Below, one piece after another: positions 49,407 through 53,604 of a stretch of 64,000 bases of DNA. The notes below the pieces were generated by a model. That model ran no database searches. It saw only the letters and a list, made by a program, of their open reading frames with translations, and was not told where the DNA came from. The translations under genes and the position numbers were made by a program. The stretch is taken from the NCBI GenBank assembly GCA_963826115.1, contig CAWGVS010000005.1, positions 192,001 to 256,000 on the forward strand, written 5' to 3'. The stretch's first letter is position 1; each line of letters opens with the position of its first letter. The DNA comes from an uncultured Candidatus Rokubacteria bacterium (GTDB lineage Bacteria > Methylomirabilota > Methylomirabilia > Rokubacteriales > DASRDR01).

Positions 49407-49547
49407 ATGGACGGGCGGGACGGTGACAGCCTGGCTGAGCGTCTGCCGGAGTACGAGCCGCCGCGCGTGGAGCGGGTGCTGACGCCGGCGGAGATCGAGC
49501 GGGAATTCCGGTACGCCGGCGAGCCCGACGGCACTCCGGGCTTGTGA
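49407..49547 (+). CDS. Putative RiPP precursor peptide 1 (46 aa)
   Basis: MDGRDGDSLAERLPEYEPPRVERVLTPAEIEREFRYAGEPDGTPGL; GAGGGAG RBS. Confidence 0.85.
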   Translation: MDGRDGDSLAERLPEYEPPRVERVLTPAEIEREFRYAGEPDGTPGL

Positions 49548-49681
49548 TGACGGATCGGGAGCGACCAGCGGAGGACGCGCCGAGCTATGAGCCGCCGCGC
49601 GTGGAGCGGGTGCTGACACCTGCCGAGATCGAGCGAGAGTTCCGGTACGCTGGCGGGGCCGACGGCACGGGGCCTGCGTAG
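49547..49681 (+). CDS. Putative RiPP precursor peptide 2 (44 aa)
   Basis: MTDRERPAEDAPSYEPPRVERVLTPAEIEREFRYAGGADGTGPA; TGATG coupling to peptide 1. Confidence 0.85.
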   Translation: MTDRERPAEDAPSYEPPRVERVLTPAEIEREFRYAGGADGTGPA

Positions 49682-49702
49682 ACAGCGGGGAGCGAACTGC
49701 GA

Positions 49703-49834
49703 ATGAGCGAAGACGAGGGGCGATTGACGGACGGACCGGGCTACGAGCCGCCGAGAATCGAGCGCGTGGTCACTTCAGCCGACCTCGATCGCGAAGTGCT
49801 GTACGCCGGCCCGGCGACCTCGGACCCGATATAG
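49703..49834 (+). CDS. Putative RiPP precursor peptide 3 (43 aa)
   Basis: MSEDEGRLTDGPGYEPPRIERVVTSADLDREVLYAGPATSDPI; GGGGAG RBS. Confidence 0.85.
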   Translation: MSEDEGRLTDGPGYEPPRIERVVTSADLDREVLYAGPATSDPI

Positions 49835-49863
49835 CCGCCAGAGCAGCGCGCGATCTGCGGAGC

Positions 49864-50022
49864 ATGGAAGCCGTGCGGATGGGCGAACCAGACGGGGGTG
49901 GGGCGGACGCGACGCGCTACGAGCTCCCGCGGGTGGAGCGGCTCTTGACACCGGCGGACATCGAGCGCGAGTTCCTCTACGCCGGCCGCTTCGACGGTAG
50001 CCCGGTCTCGTCGGATTCCTGA
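49864..50022 (+). CDS. Putative RiPP precursor peptide 4 (52 aa; 47 aa from ATG 49879)
   Basis: MEAVRMGEPDGGGADATRYELPRVERLLTPADIEREFLYAGRFDGSPVSSDS. Confidence 0.82.
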   Translation: MEAVRMGEPDGGGADATRYELPRVERLLTPADIEREFLYAGRFDGSPVSSDS

Positions 50023-50042
50023 CGGACGATTCGCGGGGAGGG

Positions 50043-50183
50043 ATGACGGATCGAGACCGACTGGACCATTGGTCGGCCCGCGAGCTCCCGCGAGCGGAGC
50101 GGCTGCGGACGCCGGCGGAGATCGGGCGCGACCTCCTGCATGCCAGCGACGTCGACATCATCACGGGCGCGACCGACGGATAG
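50043..50183 (+). CDS. Putative RiPP precursor peptide 5, divergent (46 aa)
   Basis: MTDRDRLDHWSARELPRAERLRTPAEIGRDLLHASDVDIITGATDG; GGGGAGG upstream. Confidence 0.65.
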   Translation: MTDRDRLDHWSARELPRAERLRTPAEIGRDLLHASDVDIITGATDG

Positions 50184-50219: not shown

Positions 50220-50510
50220 ATGACCGGCCGCGGGGCCCCGGAACGCGCGTACGCGCGATCCGGGCAGGTCGAGGCATCGGTCGTCGGCGACCGAGTGGTG
50301 CTCTACCACCGGACGTCGCGCAGCGCGCTGGTCCTGAACCCCACGGGGAGCCGCCTCTGGGAGCGTCTCGCGACACCTGCCAGCCTGCCCGAGCTGATCG
50401 CGACGCTCCGCGAGCGGTTTCCGGCGCTGAGCGTCGAGGATGCGCGTCGGGACGTGGCCGCGTTCCTCGACGAGCTCACCCAACACGGGGCCATCGCCCC
50501 GCCGCCGTGA
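50220..50510 (+). CDS. PqqD family RiPP recognition element
   Basis: 96 aa; VVGDRVVLYH...LNPTGSRLWERL...LRERF...ARRDVAAFLDELTQHGAI is the PqqD pattern. Confidence 0.88.
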   Translation: MTGRGAPERAYARSGQVEASVVGDRVVLYHRTSRSALVLNPTGSRLWERLATPASLPELIATLRERFPALSVEDARRDVAAFLDELTQHGAIAPPP

Positions 50511-51385
50511 TCCCCGGCGTGGGCCCGATCCGCTGGTCGGCCGGGCCGCTCTCGTTCGAGCTCCACTGCAACGCCCCGGCCGTCCGGTCACTGGCCCTGC
50601 CCGTCTTCCGTCCCTGGAGTCTGAACGACGGGGCGCCGCCGCCGACCCACATCTGGCGGATCGAGCGCATGGCGGAGCACGACGGGGCCGGAGAGTGGCA
50701 GGTCCGGTCCTCGGCCGGCGCGGAGGCGCGGGTCGGGAGCGCGGCACGCGCCGTCAGCGCCGTCGAGTACGGCGCCGTCGCCACCCTCGCGGAATCGGCC
50801 GCCGTCACCGCGCACGGCGCCCTGGTCGCGGTGGGCGGGCGCGGCGTTCTGCTGGTCGGGCGCGGCGAGGCCGGCAAGTCGACGCTCGCCTGCGCGCTCT
50901 GGTCCCGCGGGGCCGCCCTCCTCGGCGACGACATGGCCATCCTTGACGTCGCCACGGGCGAGGCCCGACCGGGGCCGAGGCGCGTGTCGCTCCGGGCCGA
51001 CAGCCGCGCGTTGCTCGGCGACGCCTTCTTCGACCGGGCCATGCGCGGGCCGTCGAGCGTCGCGCTCGGCGACTCCCACCTGTTCCACCCTGGCGAGATC
51101 GAGCCACGGCCCCGGCCCGAGACGGTGGAACTCGGCGCGATCGTGTTCCTGGCCCGCCGGAGCAGCGCGGTCGACGGCGCGCGCCTCGAGCCGATCGCGC
51201 CGGCCCATGCCCTCCTCGCGCTCCTGCCGTACTCGAACATCCGAACGCACCGGCCGTTTGGCGAGGCGATCCGGATCCTGGTCCCGCTCGCCGACCGCGT
51301 ACCCGCCTTTGACCTCGGGCGCGGGTCGCTGCCCGAGATGGCCGCGGCAGTGGAAGCGCTCGCGGGCGCCCCCTCACGGGCATGA
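50507..51385 (+). CDS. HPr kinase-related P-loop kinase
   Basis: GTG 50507 overlaps PqqD stop; AHGALV, Walker A GRGEAGKST, LLGDD. Confidence 0.82.
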   Translation: MIPGVGPIRWSAGPLSFELHCNAPAVRSLALPVFRPWSLNDGAPPPTHIWRIERMAEHDGAGEWQVRSSAGAEARVGSAARAVSAVEYGAVATLAESAAVTAHGALVAVGGRGVLLVGRGEAGKSTLACALWSRGAALLGDDMAILDVATGEARPGPRRVSLRADSRALLGDAFFDRAMRGPSSVALGDSHLFHPGEIEPRPRPETVELGAIVFLARRSSAVDGARLEPIAPAHALLALLPYSNIRTHRPFGEAIRILVPLADRVPAFDLGRGSLPEMAAAVEALAGAPSRA

Positions 51386-53604
51386 GCCTGACCCCGGCGC
51401 TCCGCATCGGGTCGGCGGCGACGCCGCCCGCGACGTCGATGGCGCTCATGCTGACGCGTCGCTGCAACATGCGGTGTGGGCACTGCAGCGTCGAGAGCGG
51501 ACCGGACGTGCGTGGCGAGCCGACCGAGGAGGAGCTCCTCGACCGCGTCCGCCAGGCTGCGGCTGGCGGCGTCCGGGCGATCAACCTCACCGGCGGCGAG
51601 CCGATGCTGCGCCCGCGAACGGTCCTGCGGCTCGTGCGCGCGGCCCGCCGCCTGGGCGTGGCGACGACGCTCACGACGAACGGCTCCTGGGGGCGGACCG
51701 CTGCTCGCGCGCGGCGGGGTGTCCAGGCGCTCCGGCGCGCGGGCCTCGCGTCGCTCGCGATCAGCGTCGATCGCTACCACGACGAGTTCCAGGGCCCGAC
51801 GCCGACGCTCCTGATCGCGCGGGCCGCCGAGGAGGCGGGCCTGCCGGTGCGGATCAGCCTCGTCGTGCCGGCGGGGCGGTCGGAGGAGGACGGGCTCGCG
51901 GCGCTGGTCGCGCCCTTCGAGGGTCTTCGCAGCACGCGCCTCCGGTTCTACGGGCTCCAGGCGGTCGGGCGGGCGCGCGGTCTGCCGGTCGAGACGATGG
52001 GCGCCGACATCGACGGCTTCTGCGCCGCGTGCGCCGCCCCCGCGGTGACGGATGACGGGCGCCTGACCGCGTGCAACGGGCCCGCGTACTTCGCGCCCGA
52101 AGGGTCGCCGCTGATCGTCGGGTCGCTCCGGTCGGAGCCCCTCGGCGTGCTTCTCGCGCGCCACCGGGAGGATCCGATCCTCGACACGATCCGGACGCAC
52201 GGGCCGACGCGACTCAGGGACGAGCTCCGGGCGCTGCCCGGCTTCGAGACCTTCCCGTTCCGCAAGCGCTATCTCGGCATCTGTGACCTCTGCCTGCACG
52301 TCACGTCCGACGCCAAGGCCGTGGCGGCCCTGCGGGTGCGGCTCGACGATCCCGCGCGCGCGGCCGAGCGCCGGGCCGCGTGGCTGGTCATCCAGGACGG
52401 CCGCCGGCGTGGCGAGCTGAACGCCGGGCGCGTCAACGGTCCCGGCGCCGCGCGGGTCTTCCTCCGGGCCGCGACGGAGCCGGCGGCGACCTATGGCGAC
52501 GAGGCCGAGCGGATCCTCGCGCGCCCCGACGTCGACTGGAAGCGATGGGCCACGTACCTGACCGCGTGCGGCTTCGCCCGGTCGCTCGCGCCGGCGCTCG
52601 ACCGGCCCGGGCTCACGGGACGGGCGCCCGCGTTCTTCGTCGAGACGCTGCGGGCGGCCGCGGTGCGCGAGGGCATCCGCGAGCTGGTTCAGCGCGAGGT
52701 GCTGCGCGAGGTGGAGGCCGGTCTCGCCACGATCGGCGCCCGCGGCGTCGTGCTCAAGGGGATGGCGCTGGCGCTCCGGGCCCGCGAGGCGGGGGACGCG
52801 GTCCCGCCCCGCGCCACCGGGGATGTCGACGTCTACGTGGAGTCCGACCGCGCGCCCGCCCTGCGCCGGCACCTCCTCGAGCAGGGGTTCAGCGGCGTCC
52901 CGGACGCGCGCCCCACGTCGACCCACCACCTCGCGGCCGTGTCGATCCGCGGCATCCAGGTGGAGATCCACACGCGGATCACGGCGCCGCACTGGGGGCT
53001 GCCGGAGGCGGAGATGCTGAGGCGCGTCCGCCCGCTCGACTCGGCCCAGCGGCTCGACACGCTGGATCCCGAGGGGCTGCTGCTCCACTCGATGGTGCAC
53101 TGCTCCCAGCACTGCTTCTCGCACGGGCTCCGCGCGGCGTGGGACGTCCTCGCGGTCCTGCGGACCCGCCCGGACATCGACTGGGCCCGGCTGGCGGGCT
53201 GGGTGAAGGCGCTTCGGGCGCCGCGCGGCTTCTGGGTGCCGGCGGCGGTGCTGGCGCGGGAGCTCGGGCTGCCGCTACCGCCGGAGCTCGTGCGCGAGGC
53301 GCCGCGCGACGCGCTTCAGCGGAACCTCGAGGCGGTCGCCGCCCGGCGCCTCTTCCGCGTGGTCGAGCGAGTCGACGAGCTCGATCCCATCAGCCGGAAC
53401 GCGGTGCTGCTCCTCCTGCACGACTCCTTTGCGGCGCGGGCGCGCTATCTCGGCGCTCTGTCCCGATGGGCGCTGGTACGTCCCGGGCGGCGGACGGGGC
53501 CCGCCCGCTCCACGCCATCCGGGGCCGGGAGGCTCCGCCAGGCCTGGCGGCACTTCCGCCAGTACCGCGGCGCCGTCACGCGCGCGGCCGCCGACGAGGA
53601 CTGA
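51382..53604 (+). CDS. Radical SAM (auxiliary Cys cluster) fused to nucleotidyltransferase-like domain
   Basis: CNMRCGHC, TGGEP, TNG, ISVDRYH, CAAC...DGRLTAC...ICDLC; C-terminal VLKG...RATGDVDVYV...VEIH. Confidence 0.88.
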   Translation: MSLTPALRIGSAATPPATSMALMLTRRCNMRCGHCSVESGPDVRGEPTEEELLDRVRQAAAGGVRAINLTGGEPMLRPRTVLRLVRAARRLGVATTLTTNGSWGRTAARARRGVQALRRAGLASLAISVDRYHDEFQGPTPTLLIARAAEEAGLPVRISLVVPAGRSEEDGLAALVAPFEGLRSTRLRFYGLQAVGRARGLPVETMGADIDGFCAACAAPAVTDDGRLTACNGPAYFAPEGSPLIVGSLRSEPLGVLLARHREDPILDTIRTHGPTRLRDELRALPGFETFPFRKRYLGICDLCLHVTSDAKAVAALRVRLDDPARAAERRAAWLVIQDGRRRGELNAGRVNGPGAARVFLRAATEPAATYGDEAERILARPDVDWKRWATYLTACGFARSLAPALDRPGLTGRAPAFFVETLRAAAVREGIRELVQREVLREVEAGLATIGARGVVLKGMALALRAREAGDAVPPRATGDVDVYVESDRAPALRRHLLEQGFSGVPDARPTSTHHLAAVSIRGIQVEIHTRITAPHWGLPEAEMLRRVRPLDSAQRLDTLDPEGLLLHSMVHCSQHCFSHGLRAAWDVLAVLRTRPDIDWARLAGWVKALRAPRGFWVPAAVLARELGLPLPPELVREAPRDALQRNLEAVAARRLFRVVERVDELDPISRNAVLLLLHDSFAARARYLGALSRWALVRPGRRTGPARSTPSGAGRLRQAWRHFRQYRGAVTRAAADED

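Follow-up and report, generated by a model that had tools for sequence, protein, structure and literature searches.

A tandem array of five small genes was analyzed at positions 49407 to 50183 of a 64,000-nucleotide window (the whole stretch of DNA under study) from contig CAWGVS010000005.1 of an uncultured Candidatus Rokubacteria bacterium. These genes very probably encode the precursor ("A") peptides of the enzyme cassette that adjoins them on the same strand, and the reading that we favor as a whole, proposed mechanism included, is that of a likely undescribed cassette of the type that makes peptides that are synthesized ribosomally and modified post-translationally (RiPPs). The pathway would run from the peptides through a PqqD-type recognition protein and an HprK-like kinase to a protein in which a radical S-adenosylmethionine (SAM) domain is fused to a nucleotidyltransferase (NTase). 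A first-pass annotation of the window had proposed RiPP precursors from the peptides themselves. That proposal is supported by the three enzyme genes next to the array, by the finding of the same peptide family beside the enzymes in 31 of 45 distant loci, and by nine genomes in which peptide and fusion co-occur. The general features of RiPP precursors are present, namely, a short gene beside modifying enzymes, a motif for a RiPP recognition element (RRE), and a linkage that is kept; the modification itself is predicted.

The first-pass observation of five small genes was confirmed. The five plus-strand open reading frames (ORFs) of 43 to 52 aa (46, 44, 43, 52, and 46 aa in order) each contain a common 23-residue block, while their N-termini and tails are dissimilar in alignment. 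At the DNA level, the array consists of five repeats of ∼90 nt with start-to-start spacings of 134, 156, 176, and 161 nt; the copies therefore occupy different frames, as separate genes rather than one long frame. Shine-Dalgarno-like GAGGGAG or GGGGAG sites precede genes 1 (GAGGGAG, 5 nt upstream), 3, and 5, and the stop-start overlap between genes 1 and 2 suggests translational coupling. A protein 100% identical to that of gene 1 (P1) exists in a public collection, and P4, when read from its alternative ATG, has the same length as a public homologue. None of the five peptides matched Pfam or NCBIfam.

The observed pattern is far beyond chance. Within the block, P1 and P2 are identical at the protein level and differ at exactly the seven codon pairs listed in the first-pass annotation, all of them synonymous third-position changes (Nei-Gojobori Sd of 7 and Nd of 0). 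The ratio of nonsynonymous to synonymous substitution rates (dN/dS, Nei-Gojobori) was 0.08 to 0.35 among P1 to P4 and 0.41 to 1.22 for pairs with P5. The codon alignment with homologous loci that the annotation had named as a check was made on 26 intact copies from 10 loci, all of the same genus as the window. All 23 third positions of the block varied, compared to 12 first and 9 second positions; pairwise differences at codon positions 1, 2, and 3 numbered 765, 709, and 3257, respectively; and the ratio of nonsynonymous to synonymous proportions (pN/pS) was 0.24 in frame versus 2.45 and 2.35 in the two shifted frames. This pattern argues for real coding genes under purifying selection, with four of the five copies clearly under family constraint. 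The 23-residue consensus given earlier for copies 1 to 4 was correct, and the accompanying claim of purifying selection holds for these four. P5 appears degenerate; it deviates at block positions 1, 21, and 23, all otherwise invariant in the family, and it is probably a decaying or repurposed copy.

The copy nearest the PqqD gene was damaged or divergent in seven of eight same-genus loci (window positions 50043 to 50183 and loci L013, L014, L015, L016, L018, and L019), and several of these copies have a common tail end, Asp-Gly(-Gly). This suggests one old orthologue that is decaying differently in each lineage or that has another role.

That the repeats are noncoding (a DNA repeat or a structured RNA), or that they encode small proteins functionally unrelated to the neighboring enzymes, is extremely improbable. 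Direct evidence of expression is absent, and a promoter and terminator scan, with a consensus not suited to this phylum, found nothing; against this, the codon-position pattern and the frame-specific pN/pS favor coding, there was no Rfam match at an E value of ≤0.1, and the linkage of peptide to enzymes is kept across phyla.

A profile of the peptide matched 404 small proteins (E ≤ 0.01) in public metagenome and genome predictions. The genes had been called hidden, which is so in that all five fall below the first-stage ORF cutoff, but the 404 matches were already predicted publicly as hypothetical proteins. Among the best 120 of the 404, on which the block was aligned, any source name was "hypothetical protein," none had a Pfam domain, and 119 carried the block ungapped, with positions 1, 5, 7, 18, 21, 22, and 23 invariant. 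Across the 59 peptides from the distant loci, the invariant residues of the block were Tyr1, Pro4, Ala22, and Gly23, and Glu7, Arg17, Glu18, and Tyr21 were each kept in 56 to 58. Position 6 was Val or Ile without exception, and the Thr at position 11, conserved within the genus, was not kept elsewhere.

The tails span 3 to 25 residues (mostly 5 to 12) and are of low complexity. Every tail contains Ser or Thr, in 59 of 59 distant peptides and in 118 of 118 tails of a separate count. From how often Ser and Thr occur in the N-termini, 85.5 of the 118 would be expected to do so, a contrast that relatedness inflates. A tail Ser or Thr is the likely kinase target, by analogy with the systems discussed below. 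The first-pass annotation had described a conserved leader followed by a freely varying core in the manner of diversity-generating RiPPs. The leader/core layout is plausible, given the RRE motif and the tail Ser/Thr, although no leader peptidase or cleavage site was found; the tails do vary, but each keeps at least one Ser or Thr. The term "diversity-generating" is not borne out: the tails are short and simple, and a single copy is all that 20 of the 31 distant loci hold.

The start of the block, YxxPx[VI], appears to be an RRE-binding leader motif, by analogy with [Y/W]xxPx[L/V/I/F/A], the motif that the RREs of lasso peptides and of linear polyphosphorylated peptides (LPP) bind through a conserved Asn and Asp that hold its Pro kink and Tyr, according to the LPP report (PMC13381572). 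After a 36-nt gap, the array is followed by the PqqD, kinase, and fusion genes, which overlap by 4 nt at each junction. The best NCBIfam match of the PqqD protein was TIGR04353 (33.3 bits; cutoff, 35), followed by lasso PqqD chaperone models, and the PqqD equivalog model gave 26.8 (cutoff, 46). Four residues were invariant among 33 homologues, including Asn40 and Asp78, which, judging from their spacing, would correspond to N33 and D70 of LppB. The closest solved relative by sequence was TbiB1 (E = 0.1). A predicted complex of the PqqD protein with the peptide scored 0.55, compared to 0.02 for the best of three controls, with at least 85% contact agreement between runs and a partner pLDDT (predicted local distance difference test) of at least 57. 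Of 80 solved complexes, 58 attained the benchmark mark for such predictions, as did 2 of 110 mismatched pairs, but only 7 of the 80 passed with a score of 0.60 or less. The prediction gives a weak indication of binding, and since similar RRE-leader complexes are solved, passing may reflect likeness to them.

The kinase matched TIGR04352 (E = 1.6e-16; 60.2 bits; cutoff, 200), and its P-loop is visible in the translation. TIGR04352 (kinase A) and TIGR04353 (PqqD) belong to the NCBIfam "HPr-rel-A system" and were the best-scoring named families, both below their cutoffs; the comparison is one of scores only, and no paper on this system was found in the literature covered.

Across 24 full-length fusions, the only invariant cysteines were those of CxxxCxxC plus C214, C231, C301, and C304, as expected for three residues of the radical SAM motif and four that would bind an auxiliary cluster. 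The model of the radical SAM domain had a pLDDT of 86.8, and its nine best Foldseek matches in the PDB were all EpeE/YydG (E = 3e-18; TM score, 0.74 to 0.82; 313 to 319 columns), followed by PqqE (E = 2e-10; TM score, 0.50). The best NCBIfam match was the YydG family TIGR04078 (76.3 bits; cutoff, 300; profile positions 2 to 301 of 309). As described in the accessible text on EpeE (PMC13012085), Cys223 of that enzyme returns the hydrogen that completes epimerization. Cys222-Cys223 of EpeE aligned on C231-N232 of the fusion (phmmer; a sequence alignment, not a superposition), with the numbering offset of 25 between chain and native EpeE confirmed by the D210A entry 8ai6, whose chain has Ala at position 235. 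N232 is nearly invariant in the full-length fusions. The radical SAM domain thus appears to have an EpeE-like fold without the EpeE hydrogen-donor Cys, and the natural loss of that donor suggests a different radical outcome.

Three assignments were considered for this domain and rejected. Membership in the YydG equivalog TIGR04078 fails on the subcutoff score and the unmatched Cys223, although the EpeE fold is present. PQQ (pyrroloquinoline quinone) biosynthesis by PqqA/D/E does not fit, as the PqqE (TIGR02109, 43 bits; cutoff, 381) and PqqD equivalog scores were below the cutoffs and the TM score to the PqqE fold was only 0.50. A defense system was set aside as well; the PADLOC matches were all of a generic viperin type and confined to roughly the first 110 residues (∼18 to 131) of the domain.

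It is doubtful that the enzyme is nonetheless a true epimerase, yielding epipeptide-like linear peptides with d-amino acids that are also phosphorylated, with the hydrogen coming from a donor other than the Cys223 equivalent. The YydG match over nearly the whole profile, the nine EpeE structures at the head of the fold search, and the conservation of Val/Ile (the residue types that EpeE targets) at block positions 6, 9, and 19 are what such an enzyme would lead one to expect. The score of 76 bits against a cutoff of 300 and the nearly invariant Asn at the Cys223 position are not; the invariant cysteines are only the seven expected to bind two clusters, and EpeE is not known to need an RRE.

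In the NTase domain, the motif residues D481 and D483 showed almost no variation across the 24 full-length fusions and none in a separate 23-row C-terminal alignment. No PDB sequence matched at an E value of ≤1, and Foldseek returned none at ≤0.001, the best being MenT1 (3.4e-3), followed by ANT(2'')-Ia and poly(A) polymerases. Such matches indicate no more than a generic pol-beta-type nucleotidyltransferase fold with no close solved relative.

The cassette is widely distributed. At a threshold of E ≤ 1e-30, 107 representatives of the fusion were found, including ∼30 full-length proteins at 35 to 51% identity. A profile-guided scan with one genome per species gave 45 further loci (fusion identity, 39 to 59%), for which taxon names are the titles of the records: Binatia, Acidobacteriota, Pirellulales, Planctomycetota, Cyanobacteriota, Gemmatimonadota (17 loci), Sumerlaeota, Abditibacteriota, Verrucomicrobiota, Burkholderiales, Vulcanimicrobiota, and others, at least 10 phyla overall. 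When conservation around the fusion gene was counted in 46 loci, the fusion (46/46), kinase (40/46), and PqqD (38/46) were conserved and nothing else was. The 31 distant loci with at least one full block on the same strand upstream of PqqD hold the 59 peptides; the maximum was seven full copies, in the complete genome AP024152.1 (titled Abditibacteriota bacterium IAD-21), which has two partial copies besides.

The 14 distant loci without a full block include five cut by contig ends (L107, L109, L114, L126, and L141). Three others (L138, L146, and L147) have partial, gapped, or misplaced block matches only, two of them downstream of the fusion start, and L132 and L149 have no block match. A kinase-less variant in which PqqD abuts the fusion accounts for four more: L118, L121, and L123 (titled Gemmatimonadaceae/Gemmatimonadales) and L127 (Sumerlaeaceae). 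Separately, locus L119 carries the full cassette and a family peptide on a contig titled as a Bifidobacterium breve metagenome-assembled genome (MAG), unlike all other carriers; this title may be a binning error.

Fourteen same-genus genomes (records titled Candidatus Rokubacteria or Methylomirabilota MAGs), the window's own genome, and 26 genomes of other genera of the order (including the unpublished G038) were also compared. Full-length fusion orthologues (75 to 80% identity) were present in 7 of the 14, with one further fragmented copy, and in none of the 26; peptide profile matches were found in 9 of the 14 and in none of the 26. With the window's genome included, peptide and fusion are found together in nine genomes; a single genome, a 68%-complete MAG, has the peptide alone, the fusion alone was seen in no genome, and five lack both. 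This co-occurrence is descriptive, as related genomes are not independent.

In six relatives, the syntenic arrays hold 5, at least 5, about 6, 3, 5, and 4 copies. Several copies in relatives have in-frame deletions or frameshifts, indicating birth-and-death turnover. In a seventh relative (L014; G014:C13, 3749 to 3642, minus strand), the enzymes are intact and the array is reduced to a 22-aa remnant of the block end, while family peptides lie elsewhere in that genome; in another (G008:C6:128714-128952), only short fragments of the fusion gene remain. The remnant and the fragments point to ongoing loss.

The window's genome holds 11 precursor copies, five in the window and six elsewhere (Table 1). 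No PqqD, HprK, or PF14907 genes were found near the six outside copies (L100 to L102), whose maturation presumably falls to the window's enzymes acting in trans. Other combinations of PqqD, weak HprK-like, and PF14907 matches occur in this genome at C9:31340-35603, C1:41083-44843, C6:110764-115663, C12:368224-369623, and C5:33955-35912, and several RRE-dependent pathways may thus operate in parallel. The C9:31340-35603 matches recur at C12:649-2522 with identical E values, which suggests that the same sequence was assembled on two contigs. A motif scan for precursors beside the other PqqD genes of the genome gave implausible matches only.

The gene upstream of the cassette encodes a pyridoxal phosphate-dependent aminotransferase; downstream, on the opposite strand, are genes for a polysaccharide deacetylase and a short-chain dehydrogenase/reductase. 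These flanks are syntenic within the genus at 82 to 94% identity, compared to 60 to 83% for the cassette proteins. A 16-nt palindrome (94% complementary, with overlapping arms) lies at positions 50237 to 50264, at the 5' end of the PqqD gene.

Table 1. Features of the peptide array, the adjoining enzyme genes, and precursor copies elsewhere in the genome. Positions are those of the window unless a contig is given.
Feature	Position	Strand	Description
Precursor peptide gene 1 (P1)	49407..49547	+	46 aa; 23-aa block between a variable N-terminus and an 8-aa tail that has one Thr
Precursor peptide gene 2 (P2)	49547..49681	+	44 aa; ATG overlaps P1 TGA (TGATG)
Precursor peptide gene 3 (P3)	49703..49834	+	43 aa; GGGGAG 10 nt upstream
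Precursor peptide gene 4 (P4)	49864..50022	+	52 aa from ATG 49864; 47 aa from alternative ATG 49879
Peptide gene 5 (P5)	50043..50183	+	46 aa; divergent
PqqD-family RiPP recognition element	50220..50510	+	96 aa; PF05402, E 8e-15
HprK-related P-loop peptide kinase (putative)	50507..51385	+	292 aa; PF07475, E 1.6e-8
Radical SAM + NTP_transf_5 fusion	51382..53604	+	740 aa; PF04055 + PF14907
Radical SAM domain with one-cluster twitch-type extension	51382-52416	+	Fusion residues 1-345
NTP_transf_5 nucleotidyltransferase domain	52528-53232	+	Fusion residues ~383-617
Four-copy array outside the window	G000:C5:928083-928800	-	Between glutamate dehydrogenase and tetratricopeptide repeat protein genes
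Single precursor copy	C5:625202-625330	-	Window's own genome
Single precursor copy	C12:700170-700280	+	Window's own genome

Neither this peptide family nor a cassette of PqqD, HprK-like kinase, and radical SAM-NTP_transf_5 was found in the literature covered, most subscription journals and supplements lying outside that coverage. The closest known system is LPP (lppA-K-B-S-D-N; Bacillota; Popov et al., Nat Commun 2026, PMC13381572), for which the comparisons here follow the accessible text of the report. A discrete PqqD-type RRE occurs in both systems, together with an HprK-like kinase and an uncharacterized NTP transferase, which here is fused to a radical SAM domain. Both also have one to several precursor genes whose conserved region starts YxxPxV, followed by a variable C-terminal part with a phospho-acceptor (here predicted) a few residues in, and both lack a lasso cyclase. 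The LPP kinase phosphorylates Ser3 of the core. The two differ in several respects. Only YxxPxV is common to the block and the LPP leader consensus YxxPxVLxHQxIxFETxxS, with RExxYAG here in place of HQxIxFET; the short tails here contrast with LPP precursors of 35 to 200 aa overall and a 45-residue core in the case studied; and the SpI-type leader peptidase and MsbA-type exporter of LPP are neither in the window's cassette nor conserved in the 46 loci. The EpeE-fold radical SAM domain fused to the NTase is particular to this cassette. In addition, LPP is restricted to Bacillota according to its authors, whereas this cassette occurs in many non-Bacillota phyla. Lacking the peptidase and the exporter, and with another leader consensus and other phyla, the cassette is not an LPP system in the defined sense. 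By analogy, the cassette probably resembles LPP in recognition and phosphorylation.

The phospho(glyco)lasso peptide systems (paeninodin kinase; pseudomycoidin PsmK/PsmN) have kinase, NTase, and PqqD-type RRE proteins of the same families and a YxxP-type leader, as far as the accessible text goes (PMC8498205). According to the same sources, HprK homologues phosphorylate, at times repeatedly, a Ser of lasso precursors (PMC8498205), and in pseudomycoidin a PF14907-type nucleotidyltransferase puts one or two hexoses on the phosphate (PMC8498205; PMC13381572). The predicted acceptor Ser/Thr here, in contrast to the lasso systems, is not necessarily C-terminal, and neither their Asn-synthetase-like C cyclase nor their transglutaminase-like B2 protease is in this cassette. 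In lasso precursors, the leader has Thr as its penultimate residue, and an Asp or Glu at position 7 to 9 of the core closes the ring. No conserved Thr-x followed by a ring-forming acid is found after the block, and a lasso peptide identity was rejected on these three counts (cyclase, protease, and core layout).

The comparison with EpeX/EpeE (YydF/YydG) of Bacillus subtilis (PDB 8ai1 to 8ai6; PMC13012085, accessible text) concerns the radical SAM domain and the substrate: the overall fold is the same over a whole-length alignment and includes one auxiliary cluster, with small linear peptides of ∼45 to 50 aa as the (here predicted) substrates. Differences are the sequence identity of 18 to 19%, the Cys223-to-Asn change, the precursor family, and here a predicted RRE dependence, the fusion to NTase, and the pairing with a kinase.

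The division into leader and core, the site of phosphorylation, the group added by the NTase, and the reaction of the radical SAM domain are inferred, as follows. The PqqD protein would bind YxxPx[VI] of the 23-residue block and present the peptide to the enzymes. The kinase would phosphorylate a Ser or Thr in the short C-terminal tail, mostly 3 to 5 residues past the invariant YAG; on the LPP and lasso precedents, we consider this step rather probable. The NTP_transf_5 domain would put a sugar or a nucleotide-derived group on the phosphate, following the precedent of its relatives in phosphoglycosylated lasso peptides, and such decoration is a tentative assignment. The EpeE-fold domain would take a hydrogen from the peptide, probably in or beside the invariant RExxYAG, with any particular radical SAM chemistry being unlikely when named singly. 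Asn stands in place of the hydrogen-donor Cys, and for this reason we consider plain YydG-type epimerization improbable as the outcome. Four array copies would be functional, the fifth would be decaying, and the six outside copies would be served in trans.

Several observations weigh against this favored reading. No product, transcript, or peptide has been observed for the array, and the 20 sequencing runs that contain the locus are all DNA runs with small shares, none of them RNA. The kinase and PqqD proteins score under the NCBIfam cutoffs of the named families, and the support from the predicted PqqD-peptide complex is weak. In the LPP work, as far as its accessible text goes, the kinase rejects Thr in place of Ser, whereas many tails here hold Thr only, and LppN, the NTase relative, was inactive in the sole reported test (PMC13381572). 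The position of the first tail Ser/Thr is not fixed but ranges over tail positions 1 to 7. No leader peptidase, protease, or transporter/exporter is conserved with the cassette in the 46 loci, and cleavage after YAG is unsupported for want of a conserved leader peptidase or exporter. Reading the YAG end of the block as a double-glycine leader was rejected; no C39 peptidase or transporter is conserved, and the fit to the double-glycine consensus is poor. The four kinase-less loci have no family peptide within 2.5 kb upstream. Finally, the block that ends in YAG is near-invariant across phyla at all 23 residues, beyond what an RRE-binding motif needs, and because its conservation exceeds the usual need of a leader, the block itself may be the modified part rather than the leader.

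Taken to its end, the last point would make the block the core. Like the PQQ or mycofactocin pathways, the cassette would then turn out a single conserved, modified peptide, or else a small molecule or cofactor derived from a peptide, for example through a Glu18-Tyr21 cross-link made by the radical SAM domain, with N-termini and tails disposable and extra copies serving only to raise the dose. We regard this as improbable. It accords with the invariant and nearly invariant block positions across phyla (1, 4, 22, and 23, and 7, 17, 18, and 21), with the lack of a conserved exporter or protease, with the single copy in most distant loci that have the block, and with the absence of the epimerase donor Cys, and a PqqD chaperone with a radical SAM enzyme is the PQQ/mycofactocin arrangement, with PqqE as the second-best solved relative. 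But the block starts with a known leader motif, the Ser/Thr in every tail and the conserved kinase argue that the tail is used, and the fold is far closer to EpeE than to PqqE. The Glu/Tyr spacing also differs, being ExxY here and ExxxY in PqqA. An unlikely but consequential variant is that the block is the substrate of a new reaction by a donor-less EpeE-fold enzyme, such as a Glu-Tyr or backbone cross-link at RExxYAG. The product would be a phospho-linked peptide bearing decorations, or else a cofactor or signal derived from a peptide, and would make a new RiPP class. If this variant were true, the chemistry would be new and its product common to soil and freshwater bacteria of at least 10 phyla.

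The favored reading, in which an RRE-guided leader precedes a tail that is phosphorylated and possibly decorated, would, if true, mean that many poorly studied phyla carry a compact peptide-maturation cassette of four parts. Its precursor signature, YxxPx[VI]E...RExxYAG followed by a Ser/Thr tail, is unusually recognizable, which makes the pathway minable. The cassette would join two chemistries that have been studied apart, HprK-type phosphorylation with NTase decoration and EpeE-type radical SAM. The genome of this bacterium has 11 precursor genes, of which six lie apart from any enzyme gene, and would offer a case for RiPP maturation in trans and for birth-and-death evolution of precursor genes.

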